The notes under the pieces: model-generated
Seen by the model: only the letters and a program-made list of their open reading frames with translations
What the model was told of the DNA's origin: nothing
The model's database searches: none
Program-made: the position numbers and the translations under genes
In this document: positions 6,505-42,487 of the stretch, piece by piece
How the letters are laid out: each line of letters opens with the position of its first letter
Numbering within the stretch: the stretch's first letter is position 1
DNA from: an uncultured Thermoplasmatales archaeon
Lineage (GTDB): Archaea > Thermoplasmatota > E2 > DHVEG-1
Length of the DNA stretch: 54,702 nt
Reading direction: 5' to 3'
Assembly (NCBI GenBank): GCA_964578185.1
Contig: CAZOBL010000002.1
Coordinates: 15,007-69,708 of the forward strand

Positions 6505-9500
6505 ATGCGTAAAAGGGCACAGAGGAAAAGTAAACCTGAACCAGAAAAAACATACAAACCAAATACACCTTCAAATAAAATAATTGATAAAAATTTTCTC
6601 CCTAAAAAGTTCAATAATAAAAATTGGTGGATAGCGATATCTCTAATTAGTATTTTCCTTTTGATATTGCTTTTTAATACCTACTTTAATGTGACAAGTG
6701 ATGTTGCTATCAATCCAGATGGTGAAGGATTAGATAAATTTTATCTTTCAGGCCCTGACCCATATTACAATATGAGAATAGTAGAAGAAACATATGAAAC
6801 AGGTACTTATCCTTTCTATTCTGAAGATGACCCCTTACTAAATTACCCCATAGGACGATCTGGTGGTCGTGCACCCTTATTTAACATGATGGCATTAGGA
6901 TTTAGTAGACTTCTTACACCTTTTATGGATGAAATTGATGCAATAGGATACTCTATGCAGTTTATACCAGCTCTTTTTGGTGCTCTTTTAATTTTCCCAG
7001 TGTATTTCATAGGTAAAAATATTTTTAACAAAAAGGCAGGTCTTTTAGCTGCTTTTTTTGTAGCTGTGATACCCACTCATCTAAGTTCGGGTCACGGCTC
7101 AGCCTATTCACTGTTTGACCACGATTCATTTAATCTTTTACTGTTTTTTTTAACATTCATGTTTCTAGTAATGAGTTTAAAGGAAAAAAACAAGTCAAAA
7201 TCAATTCTTTACGCTATGCTTGGTGGGATACCATTAGCAGGTCTTACTATGACTTGGGTTGAAGCTCAATTTTTGTATGTTGTTATCGGTGTTTATGCTC
7301 TCGTTCAGATTTTCATTGATATATTTAAAAATAGAGCGGGTCTTAAGTCTGTTAGAACTCCACTAATTTTAATGGTTACGGGTTATTTAATCTCACTTCC
7401 AGTATTGGCTGTAAAAGGGGGCAAGTACAGCCCGGATATCCCCTTGTTTTTAATTATTGCAATAGCCGCTTTTGGTGTTTTATATTACTTTTTCAGCTCT
7501 AAAAAAATACCTTGGACTATTTCAATACCAACTGTTATTTCTATTGGGGTAATTGGTCTAGTATTTTTGTATTACATTGAACTTATTGCAAGTTATATTC
7601 CATATGTAGGTAGGCTAAGTAAAATTTCAGAGATACTCTATGGTGGTGGCGGTATTTACGGTAATAAAGTTTCTTTAACTATTGCTGAAGCTAATACCTA
7701 TGCTATTAGTAACTCTGTTATGTCTTTTGGCCCCGGTCTTTATTGGCTTGGTTGGGCTGGATTTATATTTCTTATTTATATGTTTTACAAACACCATGAC
7801 CGTAAGGATTACTTGTTTTTGTTAGTTTTATTTGTAATAGATTTATGGTTGATGGGTATTGCAGGTCGTTTCGTCAATGATATGGTACCAGTTATTGCAA
7901 TTTTGGGTGGTTGGGTTACATGGGTTGCAATTGATAAAATTGATTATCAAGAAATGATTAAAAATGTTAAAAGAGCAGGTGGCGGGCTTCACGGTATTCG
8001 TAGAGGCGTTAAATTCCTACATATAGTTGGAATTTTATTTATTAGTTTTTTAATTTTACTTCCAAATGCTTTTATTGCTTTTGATGCCGCAGTGCCTCAA
8101 GGGGCTATTACAAAAAACTATACTAGTAATTTAAAACAGGATTATTTTGGAGAAGAACACTCTGCGGCATTCGGTCTGGGTATTGGTAAAGAAAAATACT
8201 GGGGCCATGCGTTTGATTGGTTAAGTAAGCAAGATACTGATATAGAGGATCCCGCTAATAGACCGGCGTTTATTTCCTGGTGGGACTATGGATTTTATGA
8301 GGTTGCATTAGGCGATCATCCAACAGTTGCAGATAATTTCCAGGATGGTATTCCTCCTGCTGCTAATTTTCATACGGCTAAAAGCGAAGATGAAGCTGTT
8401 GCTGTATTTATTGTAAGGTTGCTTGAAGGAGATGTTTTTCACAATTCTCAAAGAGAGCTTTCAAGTAATGTTTATGAAATTCTAAAGAACTATGTTGATC
8501 GTGCAGAAGATGTGCGTATGTGGATTGAAGATCCCGAGAGCTCACCTTCATATGGTAAAGCTATTGATGAAGAATTTCATGAATACATTCGCGAGGATAT
8601 AGACAAAAGACATCTTACAGTTGGATCTCAATGGCCTGAAAATGCAGCATATCTTGATATAATTGAAATTTTAACGAATGATACACAAGGTCTAACTAGT
8701 GAACAATTAACCAGTCTATATCATGATTTACAAGATGTTACAGGTTGGAGTATACGTTATTATGGTGTGGAAGGATATGATAAACAAATTTTCAATATTT
8801 TTGCTTTTCTTTCTGATAAAAGTCTTTTAATGCTTGGTGCTCCAAGTGATGAATTTGTAGAGTATACTTTCGATGGCTACAGAGTTGACTCAAGAGGTGA
8901 GAAAATACCAGGTAGTGATTTTCAAGACAAACCTGCTAAGGAAATTTATGATCTTCCAGAGGATGATCGTCGTTTTTATAGAGTAACAAATCAAGATCAA
9001 GCTTATAAGAATACTTTCTTTAATACAATGTTTTATAATACTTATTTTGGCAAAAAATTTACAGGTGAAGATTATGACCCTCAGTATCAATTTAGAATTC
9101 AGGTTCCTTGTGTGAATATGAAACATTTTTATGCTGAGTATATCTCTGATATTTCTAAACCCGGGTTTCAGTACTACGAAGGTATTGCTGCTGTTGTAAT
9201 TGCTAAATATTATGAAGGCTCTAAGATTGCTGGTAATATCACGTTTTTAGGTAAGCCTATTGATGATTTAGAAGCAGTTGTAACTAAAAATCTTACCTAT
9301 TATGAAGGTTTGACCGTCCCTATTGACCATGATAAATCTTCTGTTATTAATGGTAGTTTTAATGTTTTAGCTGGTGCAGATACAATTCTTCAGGTTCGTC
9401 GCTATCCTGAGCTTCATAGTAGTATTCCTTGGGCATCTGGCTCTTTTATTGTTAAAAATGTCTCTTTAGATGTATCTGATGATGATGCCATGAGAAAAAC

Positions 9501-10764
9501 TATTGATTGGAATCGTGATATTGGAAATATTTCTATCGATCCAGGTGTTGTAAATGGTTTTGTCTATAATAGTACAGGTGAGGGATTATTAGAGAATGTA
9601 ACTGTTACTTTTAGAGAAATTACAACTATGCCAACTCAGCAAGGAGGTCAACCTGAGTATAATGATGATACTTCTTCTAATACTACTGATGTTAACGGTT
9701 CATATATTACTTCTGATTTGTTTCCGGGATATTATGAGGTTTATGCCAAATATAATGACTATTTTATAGAAGGAGATTCTTTAAAAGTTGAATCAGGTGA
9801 AAAAACTTTTAATATAACTCAACCTAAAAATGGCCATCTAGAAGGTATCGTTTATTACGATACAAATAGCGACGGTAAATATGATAGTGGAGATGAAATC
9901 TTAAAAAATACAAAAGTGGAATTAGTTCATGTGAAACCTTATACTGACTTGCCTTCTCGTTATGGTATGCCTGAAACTATAGGAAATACAACAACAAATG
10001 AAGAAGGTGAATATTCTTTCGAGTCTTTGATACCTGGTAAGATTAATGATGTAAATTTAAATACTTATCAACTTAAAGTTGAAACTGATCTTTATACTGC
10101 TACACAAGCAGTATACCCTGAAGAAAACACTACAACATCTTTTAACTTATCTGTTGGTCTTACCCCTGTAAATGTTACTGGTACCCTTGAATGTATTGAT
10201 ACAAATGAAAATATTGGAAATGTAAAAGTAGATTTTAAACCAGATGGTTTAGTTGAGAACAACACTGCTGAACAGGCTAATATTGAATCCGATGAAAATG
10301 GCAACTATCAAATTGATTTAACTCCAGGAAGGTATAATGTATCTGTTGAAGAAAAAGACGGTTCAACTTTGATTTATAGTGGTGAAAGAAAACTAGAAGT
10401 TCTACAGGGTAGCGTTTCAAAAACTGGTGTTGATATAGAGCTAACTAAACATTCAGTTAATTTGTCTGGTTTTACCGAATATAACAATGAAAACATTGCT
10501 AATTTAACAGTTAAATTCCAAAAAGACAGATCAATAGAAAATAACTCTGCGATTTCTATGATTACAAAATCTGATGAAACTGGTTATTATACAATTGAAC
10601 TTTCACCTGGCTATTATAACGTTTCAATTAATACAACAAAACAAGAAGAGGGCCAGAATTACACCTATCAGCTTAGTGAACAAATCCAAATTAAAGAAGA
10701 TCAGATTTCCACAGGGGATTTTAAAAACTTTGATGCTATCGAGAAATTTTTAAAAGAAGAATAG
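6505..10764 (+). CDS. aglB: Archaeal oligosaccharyltransferase AglB (STT3 family) with a long C-terminal extension of repeated carboxypeptidase-regulatory-like beta-sandwich modules
   Basis: Multi-TM N-terminal half with GPDPYYNMR. The catalytic WWDYG motif occurs as FISWWDYGFYEVALGDHP. The C-terminal ~400 aa carry reiterated modules (NGSYITSDLFPGYYEV, GEYSFESLIPGK, NGNYQIDLTPGRYNVSV, TGYYTIELSPGYYNVSI). Confidence 0.9.
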   Translation: MRKRAQRKSKPEPEKTYKPNTPSNKIIDKNFLPKKFNNKNWWIAISLISIFLLILLFNTYFNVTSDVAINPDGEGLDKFYLSGPDPYYNMRIVEETYETGTYPFYSEDDPLLNYPIGRSGGRAPLFNMMALGFSRLLTPFMDEIDAIGYSMQFIPALFGALLIFPVYFIGKNIFNKKAGLLAAFFVAVIPTHLSSGHGSAYSLFDHDSFNLLLFFLTFMFLVMSLKEKNKSKSILYAMLGGIPLAGLTMTWVEAQFLYVVIGVYALVQIFIDIFKNRAGLKSVRTPLILMVTGYLISLPVLAVKGGKYSPDIPLFLIIAIAAFGVLYYFFSSKKIPWTISIPTVISIGVIGLVFLYYIELIASYIPYVGRLSKISEILYGGGGIYGNKVSLTIAEANTYAISNSVMSFGPGLYWLGWAGFIFLIYMFYKHHDRKDYLFLLVLFVIDLWLMGIAGRFVNDMVPVIAILGGWVTWVAIDKIDYQEMIKNVKRAGGGLHGIRRGVKFLHIVGILFISFLILLPNAFIAFDAAVPQGAITKNYTSNLKQDYFGEEHSAAFGLGIGKEKYWGHAFDWLSKQDTDIEDPANRPAFISWWDYGFYEVALGDHPTVADNFQDGIPPAANFHTAKSEDEAVAVFIVRLLEGDVFHNSQRELSSNVYEILKNYVDRAEDVRMWIEDPESSPSYGKAIDEEFHEYIREDIDKRHLTVGSQWPENAAYLDIIEILTNDTQGLTSEQLTSLYHDLQDVTGWSIRYYGVEGYDKQIFNIFAFLSDKSLLMLGAPSDEFVEYTFDGYRVDSRGEKIPGSDFQDKPAKEIYDLPEDDRRFYRVTNQDQAYKNTFFNTMFYNTYFGKKFTGEDYDPQYQFRIQVPCVNMKHFYAEYISDISKPGFQYYEGIAAVVIAKYYEGSKIAGNITFLGKPIDDLEAVVTKNLTYYEGLTVPIDHDKSSVINGSFNVLAGADTILQVRRYPELHSSIPWASGSFIVKNVSLDVSDDDAMRKTIDWNRDIGNISIDPGVVNGFVYNSTGEGLLENVTVTFREITTMPTQQGGQPEYNDDTSSNTTDVNGSYITSDLFPGYYEVYAKYNDYFIEGDSLKVESGEKTFNITQPKNGHLEGIVYYDTNSDGKYDSGDEILKNTKVELVHVKPYTDLPSRYGMPETIGNTTTNEEGEYSFESLIPGKINDVNLNTYQLKVETDLYTATQAVYPEENTTTSFNLSVGLTPVNVTGTLECIDTNENIGNVKVDFKPDGLVENNTAEQANIESDENGNYQIDLTPGRYNVSVEEKDGSTLIYSGERKLEVLQGSVSKTGVDIELTKHSVNLSGFTEYNNENIANLTVKFQKDRSIENNSAISMITKSDETGYYTIELSPGYYNVSINTTKQEEGQNYTYQLSEQIQIKEDQISTGDFKNFDAIEKFLKEE

Positions 10765-12794: not shown

Positions 12795-13712
12795 TTGAAA
12801 AAAACTGGGTTTAGGTTTTACAAATCATTTGTAATTTTTCTTAAAGGCCTGTTTATGGGTAGTGCTGATATTATCCCTGGTGTTTCTGGTGGAACTATTG
12901 CTCTTATTACAGGTATATATGAGCGCCTTGTTGATACTATTAGGGCGATAAATTTTAAGTTTATTTTTTATTTTTTTAAGGGTTTTTTTGATAAGAAATA
13001 TTTTAAAAAAGCTAAAGATAATTTTTTAAGTGTTGATTGGGTTTTTTTATCTATTCTTGCTTTGGGTATAGGCATTGCTTTTTTGTCTTTGGCAAATGTT
13101 ATCGGTGTTTTACTTGAGTTTTACCCGAGTTATACTTATAGCTTCTTTTTTGGTTTGATTATATCATCGGCTTTTTTCGTGTATTTCCTTAATAGAAAAG
13201 TAATAAAATTCTGGGATATTGTTTTTTGTTTTGTAGGCGTTGCTTTTGGTTTTTTGATTGTTGGTTTAAGTTCTGTTGAAGCATCTCATACTTTTTATGT
13301 TGTGTTTCTTGCAGGCATGGTAACGTTTTGTGCAATGATTCTTCCTGGTATTTCTGGTGCTTTTATTTTACTTGTTCTGGGGCAGTATGAGTTTATGCTT
13401 GATATTTTACGTGACATGGCAAATTTTGATTTTTCTGGTATTTTTTATGCTATATCCTATGTGTTGGGTGGCGTTGCGGGTCTATTGTTGTTTTCTCGCG
13501 TTCTTTCTTATTTGTTTAAACGTTATCATGGTGCGACATTGATGTTTATTGTAGGTCTTATGATTGGCGCTCTTCGTGATCCTGCGGATCGTATTATGAT
13601 GCAGCCTGATAATATGTATATAACTCTTGCAGCAGGATGTCTTGGTGTATTGGTTGTGTCAATTGTTTCATATTATGGTTTTTCTGTGTCTGAAGATAAA
13701 ATTAGTGTTTAG
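12795..13712 (+). CDS. DUF368 family integral membrane protein
   Basis: Duplicated signature GSADIIPGVSGGTIALITGIYERL and MILPGISGAFILLVLGQYE. Polytopic membrane protein. TTG start preceded by GGTGGA. Confidence 0.85.
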   Translation: MKKTGFRFYKSFVIFLKGLFMGSADIIPGVSGGTIALITGIYERLVDTIRAINFKFIFYFFKGFFDKKYFKKAKDNFLSVDWVFLSILALGIGIAFLSLANVIGVLLEFYPSYTYSFFFGLIISSAFFVYFLNRKVIKFWDIVFCFVGVAFGFLIVGLSSVEASHTFYVVFLAGMVTFCAMILPGISGAFILLVLGQYEFMLDILRDMANFDFSGIFYAISYVLGGVAGLLLFSRVLSYLFKRYHGATLMFIVGLMIGALRDPADRIMMQPDNMYITLAAGCLGVLVVSIVSYYGFSVSEDKISV

Positions 13713-14563: not shown

Positions 14564-15298
14564 ATGACTATAACTGAAAATCTGATAAAAAAAGCAGAAA
14601 ATAAAAAGTTACATTTCTCGCTTCTTGACCCTGAAGATCAGAAACCACAAGAAGCTGGTGAAATTGCAAAAATCGCTGAATCTGTAGGTAGTAGCGCTAT
14701 AATGGTTGGCGGCTCAACTCTTGTATCCAGTGAGCAGGTTGATGCAACGGTTAAAGCAATTAAAAATAGCTGCAGTTTACCTGTTATATTGTTTCCATCT
14801 GGAGCTAAGTTTCTTTCAGGATATGCAGATGCAATATTTTTTATGAGTCTTCTAAACTCAAGAAATCTTGGATATGTAATTCGGGAACATGTTCAGGGTG
14901 CACCCTTTATTAAAAAAGTTGGACTTGAACCAATTCCTATGGGCTATCTGATAGTAGAGCCAGGTATGACCGCGGGTAAAATGGGTGAGGTGGATCTTGT
15001 TAAACGTGATGATGTTAAAACAGCTGTAGGATATGGACTTTCTACTCAGTATCTTGGTATGAAATTTTTCTATTTGGAAGCGGGTTCTGGTGCGCCAGAT
15101 CCTGTTTCAAATGAAATGATAGCTGCTGTAAAAAAATATGTTGATATACCGCTGATTGTCGGTGGAGGGATACGTGACCCTGAAACGGCTAAAGAAAAAG
15201 TATCAGCTGGTGCAGATATAATTGTTACGGGTACTGCACTAGAAGAAGAAAAAGATTTGAATAAAACTCTTAGCAATATTTTAAAAGCAATAGAGTAA
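14564..15298 (+). CDS. Geranylgeranylglyceryl phosphate synthase (PcrB/GGGPS family)
   Basis: TIM-barrel motifs IMVGGS, FFMSLLNSRN, FYLEAGSGA, LIVGGGIRD. The archaeal context favours GGGPS. Confidence 0.88.
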   Translation: MTITENLIKKAENKKLHFSLLDPEDQKPQEAGEIAKIAESVGSSAIMVGGSTLVSSEQVDATVKAIKNSCSLPVILFPSGAKFLSGYADAIFFMSLLNSRNLGYVIREHVQGAPFIKKVGLEPIPMGYLIVEPGMTAGKMGEVDLVKRDDVKTAVGYGLSTQYLGMKFFYLEAGSGAPDPVSNEMIAAVKKYVDIPLIVGGGIRDPETAKEKVSAGADIIVTGTALEEEKDLNKTLSNILKAIE

Positions 15299-20760: not shown

Positions 20761-20884
20761 TTTATCTATTCACGGAAATATAGAGTGTTTGATTTAATAT
20801 TTTCGACATTTACTTATTATTTTGTTGTTAGCTATAAACAATATTTAAATATAAGAAACATCTCTTATACAGGCCACGATAGAT

Positions 20885-22204
20885 ATGAAGATACTACTAG
20901 TTTTCCCACAGATCAAACATGGTGTAACAACATATGAGGATAGAGGAAGCTGGGCTCCAATTTTATTTGGTTATCCTGCAATTACTTTACCACATCTTGC
21001 AGCATTAACACCTAGAGCACATGAAGTCGAGATAATTAATGAAAATTATGATAAAATTGATTTTGATGCAGATGTTGATTTAGTGGGTCTAACATCACTT
21101 ACAATGACTGCCCCAAGAGTATATGAAATAGCAGATGAATTTAGAAAAAGAGGAAAAACAGTAGTTATAGGAGGTTTTCACGCATCTGCTCTGCCAGATG
21201 AAGCTAAAGAACATGCTGACAGTGTTGTTGTTGGTGAGGGAGATATTAGCTGGCCAAAATTGGTTAATGATTTTGAAAAAGGAAAATTGAAAGATTTTTA
21301 TTATGCCAATGAAGAAGTCGATATGGCAAATTTGCCACCAATAAGAAGAGACCTAATAAAGCACATGCCGATTGCTGGTGGTGTGCAATCTACAAGAGGT
21401 TGTCAACATCAATGTGAATTTTGTGCTATTACAAGTTTTTATAAACATGGTATGAAACAAAGACCTGTTGAAAAAGTAGTAGATGAAATCGAACAAATGC
21501 CAAATAAGATATTTTTGCTTCACGATCCTCATCTTACGTCAAATCCAAAATATGCTAGAGATTTTTTTAAGGAAATGATAAAGAGAAAAATCAACAAAGG
21601 ATGGATTGCAAATGGAACATCTAGTGTACTTGGTGCGATTGATGATGAATTCTTAAGTCTTGCAAGAAAATCAGGATGTGTAGAATGGTTTGTTGGATTT
21701 GAATCAGTAAATCAAGAAGCATTAAACCATATCCATAAAACACATAATACAGTTAAAAATTTCAAGAAGACGATCAAAAGAATTCATGATTATGGAATGA
21801 CAATTCAAGGTGGAATCATTTTTGGTTTTGATGAAGATACAACTGATACTTTTGAATTAACACTTGAAAAAATAAATGATATGGACATGGATGTACTTGA
21901 AATCAATATATTAACACCTTTTCCAGGTACACCCTTGTATGATCGTTTAGAAAGAGAAGGTAGAATAATTTGTAGAGATTGGTCAAAATACAATCAGGTA
22001 GATGTTGTATTTCAGCCTAAAAATTTAACTCCTCAGCAACTTAAAGATGGTGCAAGATATGTAGCTAAAGAGTTCTATACAATGCCTAAGGTTCTTATTA
22101 GAAATTTAAAGATACTGAAAACAATTAAAGCCCCTTCGTTTATCCTACCTGCTGGTACTAATTTTTCATTTAGGAAATATTACAAAAGGGATTTTAATTT
22201 TTAA
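20885..22204 (+). CDS. B12-binding-domain radical SAM protein (class B-like)
   Basis: N-terminal Rossmann-like MKILLVFPQ...VGLTSL...VVIGGFHASA. CxxxCxxC appears as TRGCQHQCEFCAI. Confidence 0.8.
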   Translation: MKILLVFPQIKHGVTTYEDRGSWAPILFGYPAITLPHLAALTPRAHEVEIINENYDKIDFDADVDLVGLTSLTMTAPRVYEIADEFRKRGKTVVIGGFHASALPDEAKEHADSVVVGEGDISWPKLVNDFEKGKLKDFYYANEEVDMANLPPIRRDLIKHMPIAGGVQSTRGCQHQCEFCAITSFYKHGMKQRPVEKVVDEIEQMPNKIFLLHDPHLTSNPKYARDFFKEMIKRKINKGWIANGTSSVLGAIDDEFLSLARKSGCVEWFVGFESVNQEALNHIHKTHNTVKNFKKTIKRIHDYGMTIQGGIIFGFDEDTTDTFELTLEKINDMDMDVLEINILTPFPGTPLYDRLEREGRIICRDWSKYNQVDVVFQPKNLTPQQLKDGARYVAKEFYTMPKVLIRNLKILKTIKAPSFILPAGTNFSFRKYYKRDFNF

Positions 22205-22253
22205 TACAAATTGTGGTAAATTATTTAACCATTGAAAAAAATATTATCATATT

Positions 22254-22880
22254 ATGAATAATAAATTTTCATTTAATAACATTCCATCATCTGTATTATC
22301 ATTATATCTTCGTTCATTCAACATATATTGTAAATTGCATCATTTTTTTATCCCTCTTTTTAAAAAAAAACACCATCCAAAAGTTTTCTGCATCGGTTAT
22401 TTTAAAACTGGTACGAATTCTGTCCGTCAAGCTTTTAAAATATTGGGTTATCGTACAGGTCATTTAGTCAAAAATATTAAGAAGCCAGATGAAAACTGGG
22501 CGGAATTTATTAAGAGGTGTAATTATGATGCGTACACTGACAATCCAATCCAATTTTTGTATAAAACTATTGATGAGCACTTTCCAGATAGTAAATTTAT
22601 TTTGACTATTAGGGATACAAATTCTTTTAAAAATAGTTATTTTAATTATTTTAAGGGTACTTTTATGGAAATAACTTATGATGAGATAGATGAAATCGTT
22701 AAAAAATATGAAAAACACAATAGAGATATTTTAGAATATTTTAAAGGAAAACCAAATAAATTTTTAATAATGAATGTAATAAATGGGGATGGTTGGGAAA
22801 AATTATGTCCTTTTTTAGGTAAACCTGTGCTTGATAGGCCTTTCCCTCATAAAAACAAGGGTAGATATAAAGGTGAATAA
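22254..22880 (+). CDS. Sulfotransferase family protein (Sulfotransfer_4-like)
   Basis: PAPS-loop-like IGYFKTGTNSV; KFILTIRD; C-terminal GWEKLCPFLGKPVLDRPFPHKN matches the conserved tail of this family as I recall it. The N-terminal 35 aa are of uncertain reality. Confidence 0.6.
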   Translation: MNNKFSFNNIPSSVLSLYLRSFNIYCKLHHFFIPLFKKKHHPKVFCIGYFKTGTNSVRQAFKILGYRTGHLVKNIKKPDENWAEFIKRCNYDAYTDNPIQFLYKTIDEHFPDSKFILTIRDTNSFKNSYFNYFKGTFMEITYDEIDEIVKKYEKHNRDILEYFKGKPNKFLIMNVINGDGWEKLCPFLGKPVLDRPFPHKNKGRYKGE

Positions 22881-22884
22881 AATT

Positions 22885-23889
22885 CTAGTTAAAAGAGTAC
22901 CACCAATCAAGGTATAGATGCCATAAAAAGAATACTGCATCATCGCTTATCTCTCCAAATATTTTATTAAGATTTAGAAAGTTTTTTCCCAGTATATCCC
23001 ATTTCAAAAAATATCTATTAATAGTTTTTTTATAAGAAATGATATCGTCTTTTAACATTGCTTTACCTGCTGCTTCTCCACTTAGTAAAGCTCTATATAT
23101 ACCTTCACCTGTTAGTGGGAACGTTCCGACGCCTGCATCACCTACAAATAAGATGTTTTTATAAACTAAGGGTTTTTGAATACCTGCTGGAATTAGCCCA
23201 CCAGTTTCATAGTTGATTTCACCTGTTATATTTTCTTTTTGTTTGAATTTTTCAAGTCTGTTTTTTAGGTTGCCTGGTTTTTTAGCTATTACTCCAACCC
23301 CTAAATTTATTTCATTTATCTTTGGATTTCTTGGGAATATCCAGAAGTATCCTGTGTCAGCTGTTAAAGAAATCTCCATTTTTTTCTTGTTAAAAAAGTT
23401 AGAATTTTGTAATGTTTGTTGGTATGTATATCCTAAAACTCCTTTTTTAAAACCTAATTTGCGTTTAATTATACTTGGACAGCCAGATGCATCCACGATA
23501 TAATCTGCTGCTAGTTCTTCTATTGAATTAATTTTTGCATTCGTTTTTATTTTTACGCCAGCTTTTTCTGCTCTTTTACCTAGCTGCGATATAAAAGCTT
23601 GGCGATTTAACATGAAAGCACTACCAGGCTTTCTTTTTAGTATATATTTTTTATCTTTTACTACTGTTACAGCTTTTTCAATTTCATTAAAAATACTTTT
23701 TCCTTTTGGCGTCCAGTGTCCCCATTCTCTTTCACAGGAATATCCTTCGCCGCATCGTCTCCCGTCAGGGTTATATCCAATTTTTTCATGTTTTTCATAT
23801 ATAGATACATCGATTTTATTGTTACTTTCTTTTATTGTTATTGCAGTACTCAGTCCCGCAAGCCCTCCGCCAATTATTTCAACTTTTAT
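22885..23889 (-). CDS. Second geranylgeranyl-reductase-like FAD-dependent oxidoreductase. The FAD-binding N-terminus is in frame upstream of the first ATG, with a probable non-canonical ATA start.
   Basis: The ORF track starts at Met 23613. The same frame stays open to 23889 and encodes I-KVEIIGGGLAGLSTAITIKE...RRCGEGY (GxGxxG plus CGEG). GGTGAT lies 5 nt upstream of ATA 23889-23887. The C-terminal half has VDASGCPS and LFVGDAGVGTFPLTGEGIY. Confidence 0.7.
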   Translation of the reverse strand: MKVEIIGGGLAGLSTAITIKESNNKIDVSIYEKHEKIGYNPDGRRCGEGYSCEREWGHWTPKGKSIFNEIEKAVTVVKDKKYILKRKPGSAFMLNRQAFISQLGKRAEKAGVKIKTNAKINSIEELAADYIVDASGCPSIIKRKLGFKKGVLGYTYQQTLQNSNFFNKKKMEISLTADTGYFWIFPRNPKINEINLGVGVIAKKPGNLKNRLEKFKQKENITGEINYETGGLIPAGIQKPLVYKNILFVGDAGVGTFPLTGEGIYRALLSGEAAGKAMLKDDIISYKKTINRYFLKWDILGKNFLNLNKIFGEISDDAVFFLWHLYLDWWYSFN

Positions 23890-24058
23890 TTATAATCACC
23901 TTTTTTTGTTTTATTTGATAATTTATGTTATCTTTTTTTTAACATATAAATTTTTATTCTAATAATTTTTATAAAAATATATTTTTTATATTTTTTGGTT
24001 TTTTAATATTGTTTGGTAAAGATATTTATATTATACGGGAATTATCTTCAAACCTAAA

Positions 24059-25342
24059 ATGAAAAATAATGTTAATCCTTGGACTAAAAACGATGAGTTA
24101 GAACATTATCCATCTGTTATGGAATGGTGGTGTACTGAAGGTTTTTTTAAAACAATTGAAGATGATAACGAATGGAGTTTTAAAACATCTTTTAGTGAAT
24201 GGTGCACAGGTGAGAATAAAAACGGATGCATATACAAAACAACAATATTTAATCTGACAAAAAATAAATATTATGATTTTTCAATAAGAGATGACGATAA
24301 TAAACTTAAAACTATTCAAACCTCCAATGGTTTATCCGTAAATTATAATAATTCTTTTTTGAAAGGTTGTTATCCCAGATATTTAATAAGGTGTAAAGAT
24401 AAGAAAAACAAAATATCACTTGATCTAGATTTCCAATCCGAAGCTTTACCACATTGGATCGCTCAAAATGTTACTGGAGGATACCTACCAATGGGTTTTG
24501 GTTTTTACAAATATGGCTTCATCCCCAGAAATAAAATAAATGGGACAATGTCAATTGAAGATAAAAATTACAAAGTAGCAGGCACGGGCTATTATGAACA
24601 TGTATGGGGTGATTTTTCTTATAGGTCACCAATTTTAAATTTTTCATCATTTAAAAAATCACTATCAATATATTCAAAACTAATAGGTTGGTGGATACAT
24701 AATCATAAACCCAAAATACCAAATAAAATTAGAATTTTTTCTGAAAACAATCCTCTTGGATATGACTGGATTTGGGCTATTTTAGATAATGGTTGGAGCA
24801 TATTTTTTGGAAACATACTTTTCTGGCTATCAGAAGGACCAATTTTCGGAACATTAGTTTTAACAAAAGATGGAAAAAAATACAAAGAATTTTGCAACGT
24901 CAAATACAAATATAAAAATATTAAACACTCGGAAAATTTTGATTTTTATTATCCAACAGAATTTGAAATAGAAGCCAAAGATACTGAAAAAAATGAAAAA
25001 CTAAATCTTACATTTAAAAGCACATCAAAAATATATGAATATGTCTCACATCTAAAAGAAAAAAAATGGCTTGCTTTTGTTATATGTGAAATACCCGGCC
25101 AGGTGAAAGGTACATATTCTAATGACAAAGACGAATTTTTATTGACTGGCAGCTGTAAAATGGAACCACAAAGACAAATATCCTATAAAGGCCACAACTA
25201 TTTTACTATAGATTTTTTAAAACCACCTAAAGGAATTGGTTTGAACTGTGAACTTAATTCACATTTTTTAGAAAAAAAGATTAAACTAGGATTTAAGCTT
25301 GATCCCCTGCCTCATATAAATTTTGAATTTAAAAAAACATAA
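24059..25342 (+). CDS. CrtC/AttH/tocopherol-cyclase-like (lipocalin-type hydratase/cyclase superfamily) protein, paralog 1
   Basis: G-x-GYYEHVWGD motif (GTGYYEHVWGDFSY), NPWT...EHYP..MEWW N-terminus, LPHWIAQ. About 50% identical by eye to the 26094-27395 product. The superfamily call is from motif memory only. Confidence 0.5.
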   Translation: MKNNVNPWTKNDELEHYPSVMEWWCTEGFFKTIEDDNEWSFKTSFSEWCTGENKNGCIYKTTIFNLTKNKYYDFSIRDDDNKLKTIQTSNGLSVNYNNSFLKGCYPRYLIRCKDKKNKISLDLDFQSEALPHWIAQNVTGGYLPMGFGFYKYGFIPRNKINGTMSIEDKNYKVAGTGYYEHVWGDFSYRSPILNFSSFKKSLSIYSKLIGWWIHNHKPKIPNKIRIFSENNPLGYDWIWAILDNGWSIFFGNILFWLSEGPIFGTLVLTKDGKKYKEFCNVKYKYKNIKHSENFDFYYPTEFEIEAKDTEKNEKLNLTFKSTSKIYEYVSHLKEKKWLAFVICEIPGQVKGTYSNDKDEFLLTGSCKMEPQRQISYKGHNYFTIDFLKPPKGIGLNCELNSHFLEKKIKLGFKLDPLPHINFEFKKT

Positions 25343-25349
25343 AACAAAC

Positions 25350-25985
25350 TCATTTTTTTACAAGCCCTACAGAGATTAATCTACCGTGGTTCTTGTGATA
25401 AATTATCCCTTTAATTTCGAATAATTCTTTTAAAAAAACATCCTCTTGTTTTAACGATCCATTTCTATCAGAAAAAGTTCTGAAAATTACAATACAATTA
25501 TTGTTAATCGACTCATGAATTCCTTCCAATACTTGTTTTTGAGGTTCCAATCCATGTGATAATAAAATTACATCATATCCTTTTTTTTCAAAATCTAATG
25601 CATCTGCACAAAAAATTTTTATATTTTTAACATCCCCAATTTTTTTTAAACATTTTTCCGCTCTTTTAACAAAAACATCATTTTTGTCTATGCCAGTGAT
25701 TTCAGCTTTTGTTTTTTGAGCAATTAAAATAGATGTTGAAGGAATAGGTCCACATCCGATGTGTAAAACTTTGCTTTTTGAAGATATTTCACCTAAATTT
25801 ATTTCTTCGGGTATCATATCGTCATAGAATTTTATGTAATATTGTAAAATCTTGTCAAATTTTAATGCAATGTTTTCAAATATTTTAAATAAAAAATCAA
25901 TTAATTTTTTCAGACGATTAATATCAAATTTTCGACTAAAAATGTTTAGTGGTTTTTGAACGTATCTTTCTTTTTTATCAATCAT
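25350..25985 (-). CDS. Class I SAM-dependent methyltransferase-fold protein (SAM motif somewhat nicotianamine-synthase-like)
   Basis: Motif I VLHIGCGPIPSTSILIA, followed by ITGIDKN and CADALDF...YDVILLSH. Confidence 0.6.
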   Translation of the reverse strand: MIDKKERYVQKPLNIFSRKFDINRLKKLIDFLFKIFENIALKFDKILQYYIKFYDDMIPEEINLGEISSKSKVLHIGCGPIPSTSILIAQKTKAEITGIDKNDVFVKRAEKCLKKIGDVKNIKIFCADALDFEKKGYDVILLSHGLEPQKQVLEGIHESINNNCIVIFRTFSDRNGSLKQEDVFLKELFEIKGIIYHKNHGRLISVGLVKK

Positions 25986-26093
25986 CTAAAGTTCACTTTT
26001 TCCCATTTACAAATATTTTAAGGATTTTTTTATTTTATCTATATTCCTGTATTACATTTAAGTATTAATTAAATTATTTCATATTCTTAAGAG

Positions 26094-27395
26094 ATGAAAA
26101 AAGAAACTTATAATAGCAATCCTTGGACTCCAGAAGATGAAGGTGATCATTATCCTGTTATGCGAGAATGGTGGACAGTTGAAACTATTTTTAAAACCAT
26201 TGGGGAAAATAAAAAATATAATTTTTTGATTATCGCATCTTATAATACTGAGAAACCAGGTTGTTTTTTTCAGTATGCTTTAATCGATATAGAATCTGAC
26301 AATTGTGTTTTACGTGCAGATATTGATGATGATATAGATAATCTAAAAACACAAAAAAACAAGTTGGATGTCAGATATAAAAAATCCTTTATTAAAGGCT
26401 TATATCCATATTATAATATTCATGTTGAAGATACTAAAAATGATTTTGTTATAGATTTTAATTACGATTGCAAAGCTTTACCTCACTGGATAGCACAGGA
26501 TATTAGTGATGGCTGTCTACCTTTTGGTTGGAATTATTATAAATATGGTTTTATACCAAATTGCAATCTAAAAGGCAATTTTATTCATAATGGAAAAAAT
26601 TTTAAAATTCAAGGTAAAGGATATCTGGAGCATATTTGGGGTGATTGGTCTTACAAAAATCCTCTAGTAAAGACTTCTGGTTCAAAAGGAACATTTTCTA
26701 CATATATTGATTTGATTAAATGGTGGATTCATAATCATAAACCTAAAATTCCAAGGAGAATATCTTTTACAACTGAAAATAATATTTTTGGTTATGATTG
26801 GGTTTGGGGTATTACAGATAACGATTGGAGTTTTTTTTATGGTAATGTTTTATTCTGGGTTAATGAAGGACCTGCCTTTGGAGTACTATCTGTAACTCCA
26901 GATGGAAAAAAATATTGGGATTTTTCAAATATATGTTTTAAATATAACGATTTTGTATACGTTAAAGAGTATGATATCTATTTTCCCAGTGATTTAGAAC
27001 TTAAAGCAACCTTGGAAGATAAAAAATTTTTTTTAAGATTTGTATTAAACACGAAAAACTATGAATATATTGACCCCTTCGATAATAATGGTTTTTATAA
27101 AGCATTTATCTTGTCTGAGATGCCTGGTCTAATGAAAGGATATTATCAGGATTCAGAAAAAAAAATTGAACTTAAAGGCGACTGCAAAATGATGCCTTTA
27201 CGTCAACCCTCTAAACTTGGTCATAATTCCTTAACTCTTGATTTTATTAAACCACCTAAAGGTGTTGGCGTTAGTTGGATTTTAAATTCCCATTATTTAA
27301 AGAAGAAACTTAAAGGATCTATGTACTTTAACCCTCTACCTCGATTTAAGTTTAATATGAAAAAATTAAATATAAATAATTTTTCATTTTACTGA
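26094..27395 (+). CDS. CrtC/AttH/tocopherol-cyclase-like protein, paralog 2
   Basis: GKGYLEHIWGDWSY, NPWTPEDEGDHYPVMREWW, LPHWIAQ, WWIHNHKPKIP. Collinear with paralog 1 over the full length. Confidence 0.5.
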   Translation: MKKETYNSNPWTPEDEGDHYPVMREWWTVETIFKTIGENKKYNFLIIASYNTEKPGCFFQYALIDIESDNCVLRADIDDDIDNLKTQKNKLDVRYKKSFIKGLYPYYNIHVEDTKNDFVIDFNYDCKALPHWIAQDISDGCLPFGWNYYKYGFIPNCNLKGNFIHNGKNFKIQGKGYLEHIWGDWSYKNPLVKTSGSKGTFSTYIDLIKWWIHNHKPKIPRRISFTTENNIFGYDWVWGITDNDWSFFYGNVLFWVNEGPAFGVLSVTPDGKKYWDFSNICFKYNDFVYVKEYDIYFPSDLELKATLEDKKFFLRFVLNTKNYEYIDPFDNNGFYKAFILSEMPGLMKGYYQDSEKKIELKGDCKMMPLRQPSKLGHNSLTLDFIKPPKGVGVSWILNSHYLKKKLKGSMYFNPLPRFKFNMKKLNINNFSFY

Positions 27396-28397
27396 TCAAA
27401 AAGCTATATTTTCAAAAATTAATTGTATTAATATATCAAAAAATATTATGTTAAAAGATATTAGAAAATAGTCAAATCCTCTTCGACCAACTGTGGCAGC
27501 AATATCTTTTTTATTGCCCTTGGTCTTTAACAATTTATAAGAATATCTCATTATTATTAACCAATTAATTGTAAACAATATTAAAAATAAAGGTGAAAGT
27601 ATTGTTTTAATATAGAGTAAAACTGCAAAAAATCCTGACATTAAAAACCAGATAAATGAGAAGATCGAGGCTTTTCTCTCTCCAAATGATGTCGCATATG
27701 TTTTCACACCATGTATCTCATCCCCTTTCATGTCAACTATTCCTTCTGCAATATCATGAGCATTGTCAGCAAAATAAGTAAAAAGGATTAAGATCAGTAG
27801 ATTATGTACCTCAGGTAATTTTGTTTGAATATCTCCTAAAAATGAAACAGATAGTACAATAGAGTTATGTTGAGGTAGGGCAGTCCAAATTGCAAAATAT
27901 CCAAAAATAGCTACGACTATCCATTGTATGGGTGTGAATATCTCTGAATATGCTGGAATTTTAACTCTTTTTTTGAGATATTTATCGTGAAATGTTACAA
28001 ATAAGGCAGCAAAACCTGTCACAATTAAACATAGTGTACTTACAAGGTATGCAAAAATAAAAGTTGTAGCGGAAAATATTAAGGCAATTCCAAAAAATTT
28101 ATTTTTGCTAATACGACCTGAAGGAATTGGCCTATCTGGATGGGCAATACTGTCTATATCTGCATCTGTGATATCATTCCATATTAATGCTGCAAAATAC
28201 CCAGAGTAAAGAGATAATATTGTAAAAATAACAATTTTAATTATATCAGCGTTATAAGGTTTTATACCATATGCTAGTAAAGGTATACTAGCATACATTA
28301 ATGCATAACTTATCATCTCATATGTTGGTAAGCTTCTCCATTTTGAGATGAAATTTATTGGATTTTTATTTTTAGAATTATTTTGTTTTCCAGTCAT
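27396..28397 (-). CDS. UbiA superfamily aromatic/isoprenoid prenyltransferase
   Basis: First Asp-rich motif WNDITDADID; second DNAHDIAEGIVDMKGDEIHG. Eight to nine TM helices. Confidence 0.85.
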   Translation of the reverse strand: MTGKQNNSKNKNPINFISKWRSLPTYEMISYALMYASIPLLAYGIKPYNADIIKIVIFTILSLYSGYFAALIWNDITDADIDSIAHPDRPIPSGRISKNKFFGIALIFSATTFIFAYLVSTLCLIVTGFAALFVTFHDKYLKKRVKIPAYSEIFTPIQWIVVAIFGYFAIWTALPQHNSIVLSVSFLGDIQTKLPEVHNLLILILFTYFADNAHDIAEGIVDMKGDEIHGVKTYATSFGERKASIFSFIWFLMSGFFAVLLYIKTILSPLFLILFTINWLIIMRYSYKLLKTKGNKKDIAATVGRRGFDYFLISFNIIFFDILIQLIFENIAF

Positions 28398-28537
28398 TTG
28401 ATCATTTTAATAAATTTTTTTTATTATTGGCATGCATTATGTGTTATTCATATTTTTATTTTTTTTATAAAAGAATATAAAGGGGTTGTCCATACATCGT
28501 GTGAAATACTAAGTACTATGTACATGGGGTATAATTT

Positions 28538-38113: not shown

Positions 38114-39337
38114 ATGAGTGAAAATATTATATACTTGCTGAAAGGAGAAAGTTTAATATTTTTAAAGGCAAATAGCGCCGTGTCTAATTCATCTTTTAAA
38201 TATGTATCTCCATTAAATTATGGGGATCAAATTCCCATTTATTTAAGAATACAAGGTGATTTTTTATCATATATAATACTTATTGATAAAAAAAGTAAAA
38301 ATCAATTAATTAAGTTTGTTTTACCTCCTATGGAAAAAAACGAACAAATAAAGATAAGGATTCAGTACTGGGTACTAAATATTAATAAAATGCATAAAAA
38401 TTTACCTTCCAAGAAATCATTTTCCAAAAATAATTTTTTCCCTGAAGAAACTAAAAAATGGCTTGTTTCAACAGAGTCGATACAAAGCAATAATTTTTTA
38501 GTTAAATTTATGTCAAATATATTGAAAGGCATCAATAAAGATATTTTATGGTATGCAAAAAAAGTAGCTTTTTGGAATGCATATCATGGTCTTATTACTA
38601 TTGGCATAAAAATGAGGATGGTTTTTAATCCATTTCTAAATAAATATTTCATGCCGGATAAACATTGGTGGTATATAGAAGATGCTCTTTCCACTCTTCT
38701 GTTTGGCGGTCTTTGTGCCGGAAGAGCAAACCTGATTGCGGCTTTATTGCGAAACAAAGGAATACCAGCTAGAGTTGTTATTTGCACACCAACATATATG
38801 GGAAAAGAATTTTTATTAGATTCACAGCATTATGCTGTTGAATTTTATTGTCCCGATCACGGTTGGGTTAGAACGCAATCTGGTGTTATGCCTCATCCGT
38901 CTAAAAACAATATTGCACTTAGAATTATAACTCCAGATGAAGAGAATATCTCCGGAGGGCCGTTTAGTTTTTATGGCGGTATGCATCCATGGTTTTGGAT
39001 TGACCATGAAGAGATTTTTTTAGGTAAGCCACCTAATGAACTTATGGAATACAAAATACCGGATACAAAGCAGGTTGGTTCTACTTTATCTAGAGGATTT
39101 ATAGAAAAAAAGATGAAAATCCCTAATCATGTGTTGGATGAAATTATAAACATATGTAGCGATAATTGGAAGTTTTTTACAAAAAATGTTGGCCGATGCG
39201 ATAATGATAATAGATTGTTATTTAATGAAGGTTTGGAATGTCAAGAAAAAGCAATAAATTATTTTAATGAGTCTGATTTCCCTAATTTTTTTAAGTCGAT
39301 TAAAAAAGCAAATCAGGAATATTTAAAAATTCACTGA
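38114..39337 (+). CDS. Transglutaminase-like (cysteine protease fold) domain protein
   Basis: Core LLFGGLCAGRANLIAALLRNKGIPARVV, then QHYAVEFYCPDHGWV (Cys and His of the triad). The third triad residue is not obvious by eye. No signal peptide. Confidence 0.65.
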   Translation: MSENIIYLLKGESLIFLKANSAVSNSSFKYVSPLNYGDQIPIYLRIQGDFLSYIILIDKKSKNQLIKFVLPPMEKNEQIKIRIQYWVLNINKMHKNLPSKKSFSKNNFFPEETKKWLVSTESIQSNNFLVKFMSNILKGINKDILWYAKKVAFWNAYHGLITIGIKMRMVFNPFLNKYFMPDKHWWYIEDALSTLLFGGLCAGRANLIAALLRNKGIPARVVICTPTYMGKEFLLDSQHYAVEFYCPDHGWVRTQSGVMPHPSKNNIALRIITPDEENISGGPFSFYGGMHPWFWIDHEEIFLGKPPNELMEYKIPDTKQVGSTLSRGFIEKKMKIPNHVLDEIINICSDNWKFFTKNVGRCDNDNRLLFNEGLECQEKAINYFNESDFPNFFKSIKKANQEYLKIH

Positions 39338-39385
39338 ATTAAGTAATAAATTATTTCAATCAAATTTTTATAGTATTAGTTAAAA

Positions 39386-40720
39386 ATGAAAATTTTACTT
39401 ATCCAGCCTTATCTTTCTAGAAGGCGAATTCAGATACATCCGCCTTTGGGCATAACTCATCTTGCTTCATGTTTAGAACTAGAGGGCCATAATGTTAGAA
39501 TCATTGATTGTTTGGCAATCAATGGTAAAATAGAAGATATTGAAAAAGAATTTAAGAATTTTAAACCAGATATTGTAGGCATTAGTTCTTCAACTGTACA
39601 AATCTATTACGTCTATTCTATCTTTTCATTAGTTAAGCGATTTAACCCAAATTGTTTAACGGTTATCGGAGGGCCTCACCCTTCTATTTTACCTCGTGAG
39701 ACATTAAGTGAGTGTAAGTATATTGATGTTGTTGTTAGAGGAGAAGGTGAACTTACTTTCGTTGACCTCATTAATACATTTGAAAAAAAAGGCCCAGATG
39801 GTTTTTGTGATGTTAGAGGCATAAGCTTTAGAAATGAAGAAAAGATAATCGAGAATAGAGAACGAGGGCTTATTGAAGATTTAGATAGTCTACCACTTCC
39901 TGCTTATCACTTATTACCGATGAAAAAATATATTGGAAAATATGTCACTTCTCCAACTAATAACTCCAAAGTTTCATATAATTATTGTAATATTTCCACC
40001 TCGAGAGGGTGCCCTTATAATTGTATTTTTTGCGCATCAAATGCCTTGTGGGGAAAAAAATTAAGAAAAAAGAGCGCTGAGCGCATTATTGAAGAGATAA
40101 ACCTTTTAAAAGAGTACAATGTAAAAATAATAAATTTTACAGATGATACGTTTCCTATTGATAAAAAAAGAACTAAAAAAATTTGTGAATTAATCCAAAA
40201 GGAAGATATTGATATTTTTTGGAACTGCATAACTAGAGTAGAATTGTTTAACAAGGAAATGGCTTCTTTATTCAATAAATCCAGATGTTGCGGGGTTGAA
40301 TTTGGAATCGAATCTGGTGTACAACAAACATTGGATTTTTTAAATAAAGGTTTTACTGTAAAAGACTCGATTACTGCTGTTAAAAACGCTAAAAAATATG
40401 ATTTAAGAACAGATAGTAATTTTATAATAGGAGTTCCTGGCGAAACAAAAGAGATGATCAATAAAACAATAAATTTTTCAAATTATCTAAACCTTGATTA
40501 TACAGATTTTACACTCTTAACTCCACTTCCTGGCACAAAGCTGTATAATATTGCAAAAGAACAAAACCTTTTTATTACAGAGGATTGGAGCAAGTATACT
40601 TTTTTTACACCGGTTATGAAAGTACCTGGTCTCTCTTCTTTTGATTTAAAATATTTCTTATTTAAAGCATATTTCAATAACCAATTCAATCAATTAAAAA
40701 ATAAATTAAAAGTTAACTGA
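39386..40720 (+). CDS. B12-binding-domain radical SAM protein (class B-like)
   Basis: MKILLIQPY...VGISSST...TVIGGPHPS, then STSRGCPYNCIFCAS. Confidence 0.82.
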   Translation: MKILLIQPYLSRRRIQIHPPLGITHLASCLELEGHNVRIIDCLAINGKIEDIEKEFKNFKPDIVGISSSTVQIYYVYSIFSLVKRFNPNCLTVIGGPHPSILPRETLSECKYIDVVVRGEGELTFVDLINTFEKKGPDGFCDVRGISFRNEEKIIENRERGLIEDLDSLPLPAYHLLPMKKYIGKYVTSPTNNSKVSYNYCNISTSRGCPYNCIFCASNALWGKKLRKKSAERIIEEINLLKEYNVKIINFTDDTFPIDKKRTKKICELIQKEDIDIFWNCITRVELFNKEMASLFNKSRCCGVEFGIESGVQQTLDFLNKGFTVKDSITAVKNAKKYDLRTDSNFIIGVPGETKEMINKTINFSNYLNLDYTDFTLLTPLPGTKLYNIAKEQNLFITEDWSKYTFFTPVMKVPGLSSFDLKYFLFKAYFNNQFNQLKNKLKVN

Positions 40721-40741
40721 CTATAAGTGATATTTTTAAAA

Positions 40742-42160: not shown

Positions 42161-42362
42161 AAATATTTTTTTACCTCATTTTGAAATTATATAACCTTGT
42201 ATATATTTGAAAACAATACTATAATGTTGAGTCATTTCTTAATTTATTTGTTAAGACAACTAATTATTAATTTGAAAAGTTGCACTACTTAAAAATTTCT
42301 GCTAATATAACAAAACATTTATATATTAGCAAAACTTAATTATAAGATGGTGATAATTAAAC

Positions 42363-42428
42363 ATGGCAGTAGGCAGATCGTTACCCAGCGCGGCTCTTAT
42401 CTCTATTAACAAAGAGGAAGAAGAATAA
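42363..42428 (+). CDS. Candidate 21-aa small ORF (MAVGRSLPSAALISINKEEEE) in a GC-rich island between the ligase and YcaO genes; possible modified-peptide precursor or small RNA
   Basis: GGTGAT (42349-42354) lies 8 nt upstream of the ATG. TATA-like TTTATATAT is at 42318-42326. An oligo-T tract follows at about 42444-42449. 42363-42404 is about 55% GC in otherwise very AT-rich spacer. Confidence 0.35.
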   Translation: MAVGRSLPSAALISINKEEEE

Positions 42429-42487
42429 ACAAAAATATTCAATTTTTTATTATATTTTCATTTAATATAAAATATTAAGTATTGTTT

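Follow-up and report, generated by a model that had tools for sequence, protein, structure and literature searches.

A conserved Thermoplasmatota gene cluster combining a B12 radical SAM enzyme with AttH/CrtC-fold proteins as a candidate isoprenoid-lipid modification system

Hydroxy-, methyl-, and unsaturated glycerol dialkyl glycerol tetraethers (GDGTs) serve as environmental and palaeoclimate proxies. The enzymes for archaeal lipid modifications are only beginning to emerge, and the closest described system, Ted and Hgs, comes from work of 2025. Ted, a B12-dependent radical S-adenosylmethionine (SAM) enzyme of Bathyarchaeota, desaturates saturated GDGT chains anaerobically, and Hgs, an AttH-like protein whose gene overlaps ted, hydrates the resulting double bonds to form hydroxy-GDGTs; the sources are Ca. 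Bathyarchaeota B1_G15 and a Guaymas Basin scaffold (Garcia, Chadwick, Nayak & Welander, bioRxiv 10.1101/2025.10.20.683597). Here, we describe an island of seven genes at positions 20885–28397 of a 54,702-nucleotide stretch from an uncultured Thermoplasmatales archaeon (contig CAZOBL010000002.1, positions 15,007 to 69,708; the whole stretch is referred to as the window). It encodes a B12 radical SAM enzyme (B12-rSAM), a sulfotransferase, a flavoprotein of the geranylgeranyl reductase (GGR) family, two AttH/CrtC-fold paralogs (A and B), a small SAM-dependent transferase, and a UbiA-superfamily prenyltransferase. The island belongs to a conserved cluster that is confined to one lineage and is best described as a probable variant of the archaeal isoprenoid-lipid modification clusters with a B12-rSAM and an AttH-type hydratase. 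Literature searches returned no paper on this cluster. Uncultured sediment Thermoplasmatota, including the MBG-D (marine benthic group D) type, count among the benthic archaea with the widest distribution, and next to nothing has been described of their lipids. Genomes of the MBG-D-type lineage SG8-52 are among our matches, and the cluster is a good candidate source of undescribed membrane lipids of these abundant archaea. Its genes can be expressed and offer a concrete starting point for finding lipid structures and enzyme chemistry that are new, and they could bear on a second lineage of isoprenoid hydratases, on the role of an aminobutyryl transferase beside a prenyltransferase, and on archaeal lipid sulfation.

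The likeness to Ted–Hgs rests on gene order and on the AttH/kievitone-hydratase fold. In 14 related archaeal loci, an AttH-like gene directly follows an ortholog of the island rSAM on the same strand, with gaps of 21–126 nt and in a lipid-gene context; these pairs look like operons. Unlike the Ted–Hgs arrangement, the island contains two AttH paralogs of ~430 aa, and the sulfotransferase and the GGR-like gene intervene between the rSAM and paralog A. Moreover, Ted comprises at least 500 aa and is a Gmm homolog, whereas the island rSAM comprises 439 aa and has no specific family match. Beyond Ted–Hgs, the cluster adds the prenyltransferase, the small transferase, the GGR-family reductase, and the sulfotransferase. 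While the original prediction pointed to the tetraether enzymes GrsA/B as precedent, the pair of B12-rSAM desaturase and AttH-like hydratase is the closest functional precedent instead.

A second point of comparison is the CrtC/CrtF logic of purple bacteria, in which a hydratase works beside a SAM-dependent enzyme that derivatizes the new tertiary alcohol. Similarly, a hydratase candidate of the island is encoded beside a SAM-dependent transferase, which could derivatize a tertiary alcohol. In contrast to the bacterial system, carotenoid genes are absent, and the SAM enzyme resembles nicotianamine synthase (NAS) and CntL rather than CrtF. CrtC and kievitone hydratase (7A0Q) share the two-barrel AttH-type fold with the paralogs, and the borderline CrtC-domain match described below ends at a conserved H-x-W. 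However, identity in structural alignments is only ~10–14%, and paralog A carries an extra helix and an insertion at residues 190–233. Tetrapyrrole tailoring following a BchE/ChlG/ChlP/BchM-like logic was also considered and rejected, since the scores lie far below the family cutoffs and the resemblance is limited to the superfamily level. BDGT-type methylation of glycerol by the B12-rSAMs was likewise considered but not adopted.

Paralog A (24059–25342, + strand, 427 aa), the candidate isoprenoid hydratase, and paralog B (26094–27395, + strand, 433 aa) are 44% identical over their full length and share the motif G-x-GY-x-EH-x-WGD, as expected from the initial description of two ~430-aa paralogs with a common motif. 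Paralog A aligns to positions 1–167 of the 168-residue profile of the CrtC N-terminal lipocalin domain (PF07143), scoring 22.2 bits and thus just under the cutoff of 22.5, while paralog B has no Pfam match. Within the family, 10 of 23 aligned members match PF07143 at E ≤ 0.01 (best 9.4e-6). The tocopherol cyclase domain PF14249 and PF17186 match none of these 23 members at the same threshold and neither window paralog at E ≤ 10. A profile of the AttH family found no match among PDB sequences. The AlphaFold2 (AF2) model of paralog A, calculated from the family alignment, reaches a pLDDT of 88.7 and a pTM of 0.87 and displays two β-barrel halves linked by a helix (residues 195–215). Its top Foldseek match is the AttH protein NE1406 (2ICH; E 5e-15, TM-score 0.70 on the target), followed by kievitone hydratase (7A0Q; E 3e-12) and, at ~1e-8 to 1e-6, by a 25-phosphosteroid lyase and the fungal Diels-Alderases Fsa2 and CghA. 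The invariant residues H181 and W183 of paralog A are located at the end of the CrtC-like domain, and paralog B shares the invariant residues of the family. The predicted structure settles the placement of both paralogs in the CrtC/AttH lipocalin-type superfamily, and the modeled fold is most like that of hydratases, although the same fold hosts lyases and pericyclases. Of the proposed CrtC/AttH/tocopherol-cyclase relationship, the CrtC/AttH part is therefore retained, based on the fold, the borderline match of paralog A, and the matching family members, while the tocopherol-cyclase part is unsupported, with no match to PF14249.

The paralog family is small and lineage-specific. None of its 199 close homologs is named, 253 representatives (E ≤ 1e-3) are found among 1.84 billion cluster representatives, and all 62 genome loci centered on the family derive from Thermoplasmatota-type metagenome-assembled genomes. 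The named distant AttH-like relatives among those sampled belong to Thermoplasmatota, plus one to Helarchaeota. Types A and B form separate orthologous groups; type B occurs in 18 loci and both types together in 8, and the gene of paralog B is usually convergent with the UbiA gene. Several relatives encode a third AttH-like subfamily at a distance of a few kb from the cluster (− strand; L021:3099–4391, L029, L031, and L054); it comprises proteins of ~430 aa that are 23% identical to paralog A and carry a GTGSHEHSW motif and, at the N terminus, a hydrophobic anchor. Further, longer AttH-like relatives of 480–730 aa occur among the representatives. In the two examples of distant AttH-like genes checked, L145 and L146, no rSAM gene adjoins.

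Two sets of loci were compared for synteny, namely the 62 loci centered on the paralog family and metagenome loci centered on UbiA, 39 of which span at least 8 kb. Across ~140 related Thermoplasmatota loci, the island genes recur together. Around the paralogs, the NAS-like transferase is found in 29/62 loci, UbiA in 27/62, orthologs of the island rSAM (59–88% identity) in 24/62, the GGR-like gene in 8/62, and the Sulfotransfer_4 gene in 5/62. Around UbiA, the NAS-like gene occurs in 27 of the 39 loci and adjoins UbiA in most, and the rSAM ortholog is present in 24, a GATase1-like gene in 21, and CapK/PaaK-like ligases in about 20. Type A and type B AttH-like genes are present in 10/39 and 8/39 of these loci, a second, digeranylgeranylglyceryl phosphate (DGGGP) synthase-like UbiA in 6/39, and the GGR-like gene in 3/39. 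Further B12-rSAMs belong to the conserved set of the cluster in relatives. By these counts, UbiA, the NAS-like transferase, and the B12-rSAM make up the conserved core, which the ligase and the GATase1-like protein often join, whereas the AttH-like genes, the extra GGR, and the sulfotransferases are modular add-ons. Two long contigs free of AttH genes show the order GATase1-like, UbiA, NAS-like, CapK-like, B12-rSAM, and sulfotransferase, and one of them (L063) carries GT28/UDPGT glycosyltransferases and a flippase beside the cluster. As the same families recur in both sets, the grouping is not due to chance, the predicted conservation of synteny is borne out, and the island of the window represents a reduced and modular version of a cluster that is larger in relatives.

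The B12-rSAM (20885–22204, + strand, 439 aa) was originally called class-B-like, and all elements of this call are present: a B12-binding domain (PF02310, 41.3 bits, cutoff 32.1), the Radical_SAM core (PF04055, 69.2 bits), and a CX3CX2C motif at residue 173 (CQHQCEFC), in addition to DUF4070 (24 bits). Against the NCBIfam equivalogs, all scores remain far under the cutoffs; BchE ranks first (124 versus 481 bits), and MJ_1487 and HpnJ, the other top models, are likewise far below. Among solved structures, QCMT, a glutamine C-methyltransferase (9CCB, E 9e-8; PMC12931638), comes closest. Downstream, the sulfotransferase (22254–22880, + strand, 208 aa) scores 112.4 bits on PF17784 (E 3.5e-32, cutoff 22.8), which corroborates the Sulfotransfer_4 assignment. 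It contains a P-loop-like FKTGTNS stretch around residue 50, and its PDB matches are small-molecule sulfotransferases. Orthologs are present in L001, L032, L034, L036, L074, and L130, while Sulfotransfer_1/3 proteins take their place in some further loci.

The GGR-family flavoprotein (22885–23889, − strand, 334 aa) matches GGR_cat (PF22578, 33 bits, cutoff 27) and carries the FAD-binding GGGLAG motif, RCGEG at residue 45, and YFWIFP, of the YxWxFP type, at residue 181. Its top PDB match is the digeranylgeranylglycerophospholipid (DGGGPL) reductase of Thermoplasma (3OZ2). On TIGR02032, it scores 129 bits and does not reach the cutoff of 158.8, in contrast to the housekeeping GGR at 1987–3195, which passes. 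With 26% identity between the two, the island copy is indeed a second GGR-like flavoprotein distinct from the housekeeping enzyme. In a mechanical list of open reading frames (ORFs), this gene is only 242 aa long, but its frame extends 92 codons upstream of the first ATG and thereby takes in the GGGLAG motif. The frame opens at an ATA (23889–23887) right after an in-frame TGA and TAA; a GGTGA precedes this ATA by 6 nt, and no ATG, GTG, or TTG start is present (window 23880–23900, − strand). In orthologs, an ATG or GTG start precedes the corresponding position by 1–3 codons. Relative to the ortholog in L034, the window has one extra A in an A-run, which shifts the GTG start out of frame. Initiation at a rare codon, a frameshift close to the start, or an assembly error in the homopolymer could account for this.

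Taken together, we propose with a probability of about one half that the island is a reduced, modular cluster for building and decorating an isoprenoid, ether-type membrane lipid or another prenyl-lipid. The families, the folds, and the co-localization are observed; we infer the following scheme, including all substrates, the sequence of the reactions, and the end product. The membrane-embedded, DGGGP synthase/ChlG-like UbiA would transfer a polyprenyl chain onto an acceptor of the hydroxyl or carboxyl type. Both AttH/CrtC-fold paralogs would hydrate particular isoprene double bonds to tertiary alcohols, as CrtC, kievitone hydratase, and Hgs do. These double bonds might remain from a still unsaturated prenyl chain or might be introduced by the B12-rSAM into a saturated chain, as by Ted; alternatively, the rSAM may C-methylate the chain. 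The dedicated GGR-family reductase would saturate the remaining double bonds, and a hydroxyl or amino group would receive sulfate from the sulfotransferase and a 3-amino-3-carboxypropyl or methyl group from the NAS/CntL-like transferase. A lipid substrate is suggested by the DGGGP synthase-like UbiA in related clusters, by the geranylgeranylglyceryl phosphate (GGGP) synthase and the housekeeping GGR in the window, and by the glycosyltransferases of L063; together with DGGGP synthase as the nearest solved structure of the island UbiA, these features point to ether-lipid synthesis. The more general conclusion drawn earlier, a hydrated and possibly sulfated prenyl-lipid, remains the best overall reading.

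A more specific and distinctly tentative version is a new class of archaeal ether- or prenyl-lipids in benthic Thermoplasmatota, in which the isoprenoid chain would be hydroxylated by AttH-type hydratases and rendered polar without phosphate by sulfate and/or a 3-amino-3-carboxypropyl group. Hydration might then take place after anaerobic desaturation by the rSAM or before saturation by the GGR, leading to a sulfated or a homoserine/betaine-like lipid. Given the fold match to the 25-phosphosteroid lyase, the sulfotransferase and the AttH-fold protein could also act as an “activate and eliminate” pair.

Several observations weigh against a lipid-modifying cluster with dedicated hydratases. The AttH fold also includes the 25-phosphosteroid lyase, Diels-Alderases, and lipid-binding proteins, and the hydratase activity of the paralogs thus stays a candidate role. 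Homologs of Hgs are found almost only in Methanobacteriota and Bathyarchaeota, and Thermoplasmatota are reported to be without them (bioRxiv 10.1101/2025.10.20.683597); the paralogs are therefore analogs at best. A distant AttH-like branch (L040–L053, 33–41% identity) always resides in a housekeeping context without UbiA or rSAM of the cluster, with an HflX-like GTPase, a TraB-like protein, a radical SAM protein, a DedA-like protein, and a glycosyltransferase as neighbors recognized by eye from the translations, so the paralog family is not always tied to the cluster. Further, the island rSAM is unrelated at the equivalog level to any named lipid rSAM, and with its 439 aa it is shorter than Ted, Gmm, and Cgm, each of at least 495 aa. 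The families of the cluster contain no characterized member, and the GGR-like gene of the window may be defective at its start. Lastly, the NAS-like, CapK/PaaK-like, and GATase1-like partners are untypical of enzymes acting on lipid tails, and the product could be a small molecule.

This last point leads to the main rival, a possible but doubtful reading in which a prenylated small molecule, either opine-/nicotianamine-like or amino-acid-derived, is built by the NAS/CntL-like, CapK/PaaK-like, and GATase1-like enzymes. UbiA would lipidate it, and the AttH-like proteins, the GGR, the rSAM, and the sulfotransferase would tailor the tail, resulting in a membrane-anchored chelator or a new polar lipid head group instead of an altered bulk lipid of the membrane. 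The key evidence comes from the small transferase (25350–25985, − strand, 211 aa). In a single-sequence PDB search, it matches thermonicotianamine synthase (9e-9) and CntL (2e-5), and a family profile of 18 orthologs ranks CntL (2.5e-19, 72 bits) and thermonicotianamine synthase (5e-13, 52 bits) far above the best genuine methyltransferase (5e-6, 29 bits). The NAS domain PF03059 is matched at 28.6 bits (cutoff 27.1) and by 13 of the 18 orthologs; precomputed annotations of orthologs give NAS alone. The group that NAS and CntL transfer from SAM is 3-amino-3-carboxypropyl and not methyl. By sequence, the protein is hence more likely an aminobutyryl (3-amino-3-carboxypropyl) transferase than a methyltransferase, and the earlier assignment as class I methyltransferase holds at the level of the fold but not for the closest relatives. 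Aminobutyryl transfer itself is put forward with caution, since NAS and CntL (3O31 and 7C9M, the best sequence and profile matches) have ~280–300 aa and the island protein, encoded in a prenyltransferase neighborhood, is much shorter, lacking much of the NAS N-terminal domain; generic methyltransferase domains match it as well.

The core found in relatives also favors the small-molecule or head-group reading. Most UbiA-centered loci have the NAS-like gene next to UbiA, accompanied by the CapK-like ligases and by a cytoplasmic 436-aa GATase1-like protein, which is encoded immediately upstream of UbiA in 21 of the 39 loci (for example, L063:8673–9986, L064:8656–9963, and L013:14199–15509). This protein shows weak similarity to BPL_N and a nucleophile-elbow motif, GGGY-x-G-x-CGG, which contains G-x-C-G-G, and it could form an ATP-dependent amidation pair with the CapK-like ligase. 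In addition, ApbA/PanE-type reductases and short-chain dehydrogenases/reductases (SDRs) occur in larger variants of the cluster. However, the island of the window contains neither the ligase nor the cytoplasmic GATase1-like gene, and the loci examined showed neither transporter genes nor genes related to metals. We retain the prenyl-lipid cluster as the preferred reading.

The remaining readings depend on the prenyltransferase (27396–28397, − strand, 333 aa), the sole integral membrane protein among the seven; by hydropathy, it has at least 6 transmembrane segments, and the other six proteins are soluble or peripheral. Its assignment to the UbiA family is secured by PF01040 (93.3 bits versus a cutoff of 34.2) and by both anticipated Asp-rich motifs, NDITDADID at residue 74 and, as read from the translation, DNAHDIAEGIVDMKGD with the pattern D-x-x-E-x-x-x-D-x-x-G-D. 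On the more specific models, the protein scores 106.7 bits on PRK12884 “prenyltransferase” (cutoff 269), 78.7 and 52.6 bits on the DGGGP synthase models PRK12882 (cutoff 296) and PRK12883 (cutoff 353), 52 bits each on ChlG (cutoff 313) and EboC (cutoff 250), 36 bits on the proteobacterial UbiA model, and 31.3 bits on homogentisate phytyltransferase (NF009525, cutoff 226). Among solved structures, the DGGGP synthase of Methanocaldococcus jannaschii (MjDGGGPS, 6M31) comes first, with 40.9 bits for the single sequence and 56 bits (4e-14) for the family profile, in two stretches; chlorophyll synthase (6e-9) and ApUbiA (6e-5) are next for the profile. With MjDGGGPS and ChlG, the island enzyme shares the superfamily, both Asp-rich motifs, and an RPIPSG-type stretch, but it is ~50 aa longer. 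In contrast, the second UbiA type in clusters of relatives matches MjDGGGPS over its full length (93.8 bits, 1.5e-25) and scores above the island UbiA on the DGGGP synthase models. This second type (L010:8752–9756, L026:19569–20561, and similar loci) usually adjoins an ApbA/PanE-type reductase or an SDR epimerase/dehydratase-like gene, and no copy of it lies within the window. Based on the sub-cutoff scores, the first rank of MjDGGGPS, and the better match of the second type, sequence comparison identifies the island UbiA as a divergent paralog on the DGGGP synthase/ChlG side of the superfamily and not as a canonical DGGGP synthase.

Enzymes on the DGGGP synthase/ChlG side prenylate hydroxyl or carboxyl groups and not aromatic carbons. 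The position of UbiA nearer to DGGGP synthase/ChlG than to homogentisate phytyltransferase hence weakens the analogy to tocochromanol and quinone biosynthesis drawn in the original prediction, in which UbiA would prenylate a ring, followed by a methyltransferase, the cyclase-like paralogs, and saturation of the tail by the GGR. This pathway follows a similar enzyme logic, PaaK-like aryl-acid ligases occur in relatives, and JGI automatically names some UbiA orthologs 4-hydroxybenzoate polyprenyltransferase. Nevertheless, we regard it as improbable, since UbiA scores 31 bits on homogentisate phytyltransferase and 36 bits on the proteobacterial UbiA compared to 107 and 79 bits on the archaeal prenyltransferase and DGGGP synthase models, PF14249 matches no family member of the paralogs, whose structural neighbors are hydratases and lyases, and genes for aromatic head-group biosynthesis are absent from the island and the annotated related loci.

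Equally weak compared with the prenyl-lipid cluster is the view that there is no common pathway, with UbiA as the housekeeping DGGGP synthase and its neighbors as unrelated accessory genes at a variable site. UbiA is the only gene of its kind in a window that also encodes GGGP synthase and GGR, it has 669 homologs, the best 120 of which are 58–69% identical, and JGI names many orthologs DGGGP synthase. Moreover, L026, L028, and L130 differ in the gene sets that they carry between purE and the conserved gene of 105 aa. This scenario is nonetheless unlikely, as the enzyme stays far under every DGGGP synthase cutoff and aligns to MjDGGGPS in two pieces with 41–56 bits, as compared to 94 bits over the full length for the second UbiA type, the same partner families flank UbiA in most loci long enough to judge, and the rSAM–AttH pairs are operon-like. 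The expectation that UbiA differs from the canonical DGGGP synthase is supported by these scores.

Least probable of all is the tailoring of a polyprenyl-phosphate glycan carrier or a cell-surface glycoconjugate instead of a membrane core lipid, which would account for the CapK-like ligases, sulfotransferases, GT28/UDPGT, SDR epimerase/dehydratase, and MatE/Polysacc_synt flippase genes in or beside clusters of relatives and for AglB and an undecaprenyl-phosphate translocase-like gene in the window, but such glycan-type genes are missing from the window island and most loci, and AttH-fold hydratases and B12-rSAMs have no known role there. As for the envelope genes of the window, the housekeeping GGR (1987–3195) is joined by a GGGP synthase of the PcrB family (14564–15298), the AglB/STT3 oligosaccharyltransferase (6505–10764) comprises 1419 aa with C-terminal CarboxypepD_reg and SdrD-B-like domains, and the undecaprenyl-phosphate-translocase-like protein is encoded at 12795–13712.

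The ORF reading of the window confirms seven adjacent genes on alternating strands within 20885–28397, in the strand order + + − + − + −. The G+C content of the island is 27.5–29%, compared with 31–35% in the flanking DNA, and purE on one side and the conserved 105-aa gene on the other flank it (20761–28537). The same site is found in L026 (4823–20759), L028, and L130 (4047–8800) with differing sets of modules. In L026, it spans 13 genes, among which are the other UbiA type, extra rSAMs, and genes for an ApbA reductase and a Sulfotransfer_3 protein, while L130 harbors UbiA, paralog B, the GGR-like gene, and a sulfotransferase. Thus, the island at the purE site looks modular and variable. Rfam and tRNA scans revealed no RNA genes in the window.

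A second gene group of the window (38114–46145) encodes a transglutaminase-like protein, a B12-rSAM, a ligase, a YcaO protein (42488–44248), and a secreted GATase1-like protein (44535–46145). According to Pfam and NCBIfam, its rSAM is BchE/HpnJ-like (39386–40720, + strand) and its ligase is a PaaK/CapK-like adenylate-forming enzyme (40742–42160, − strand). In relatives, rSAM and ligase types of this locus (39386–42160) are interleaved with UbiA/AttH genes at 24–36% identity; for this genome, we infer a possible association with the island. The product of 44535–46145 was considered as the GATase1-like partner of the cluster and rejected, since model and sequence reveal a signal peptide as well as an Ig-like domain at the C terminus. 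These features mark it as a secreted paralog, with 39–44% identity to the cytoplasmic protein of 436 aa, and it is not counted as part of the cluster. Its AF2 model adopts a class I glutamine-amidotransferase/ThuA-like fold.

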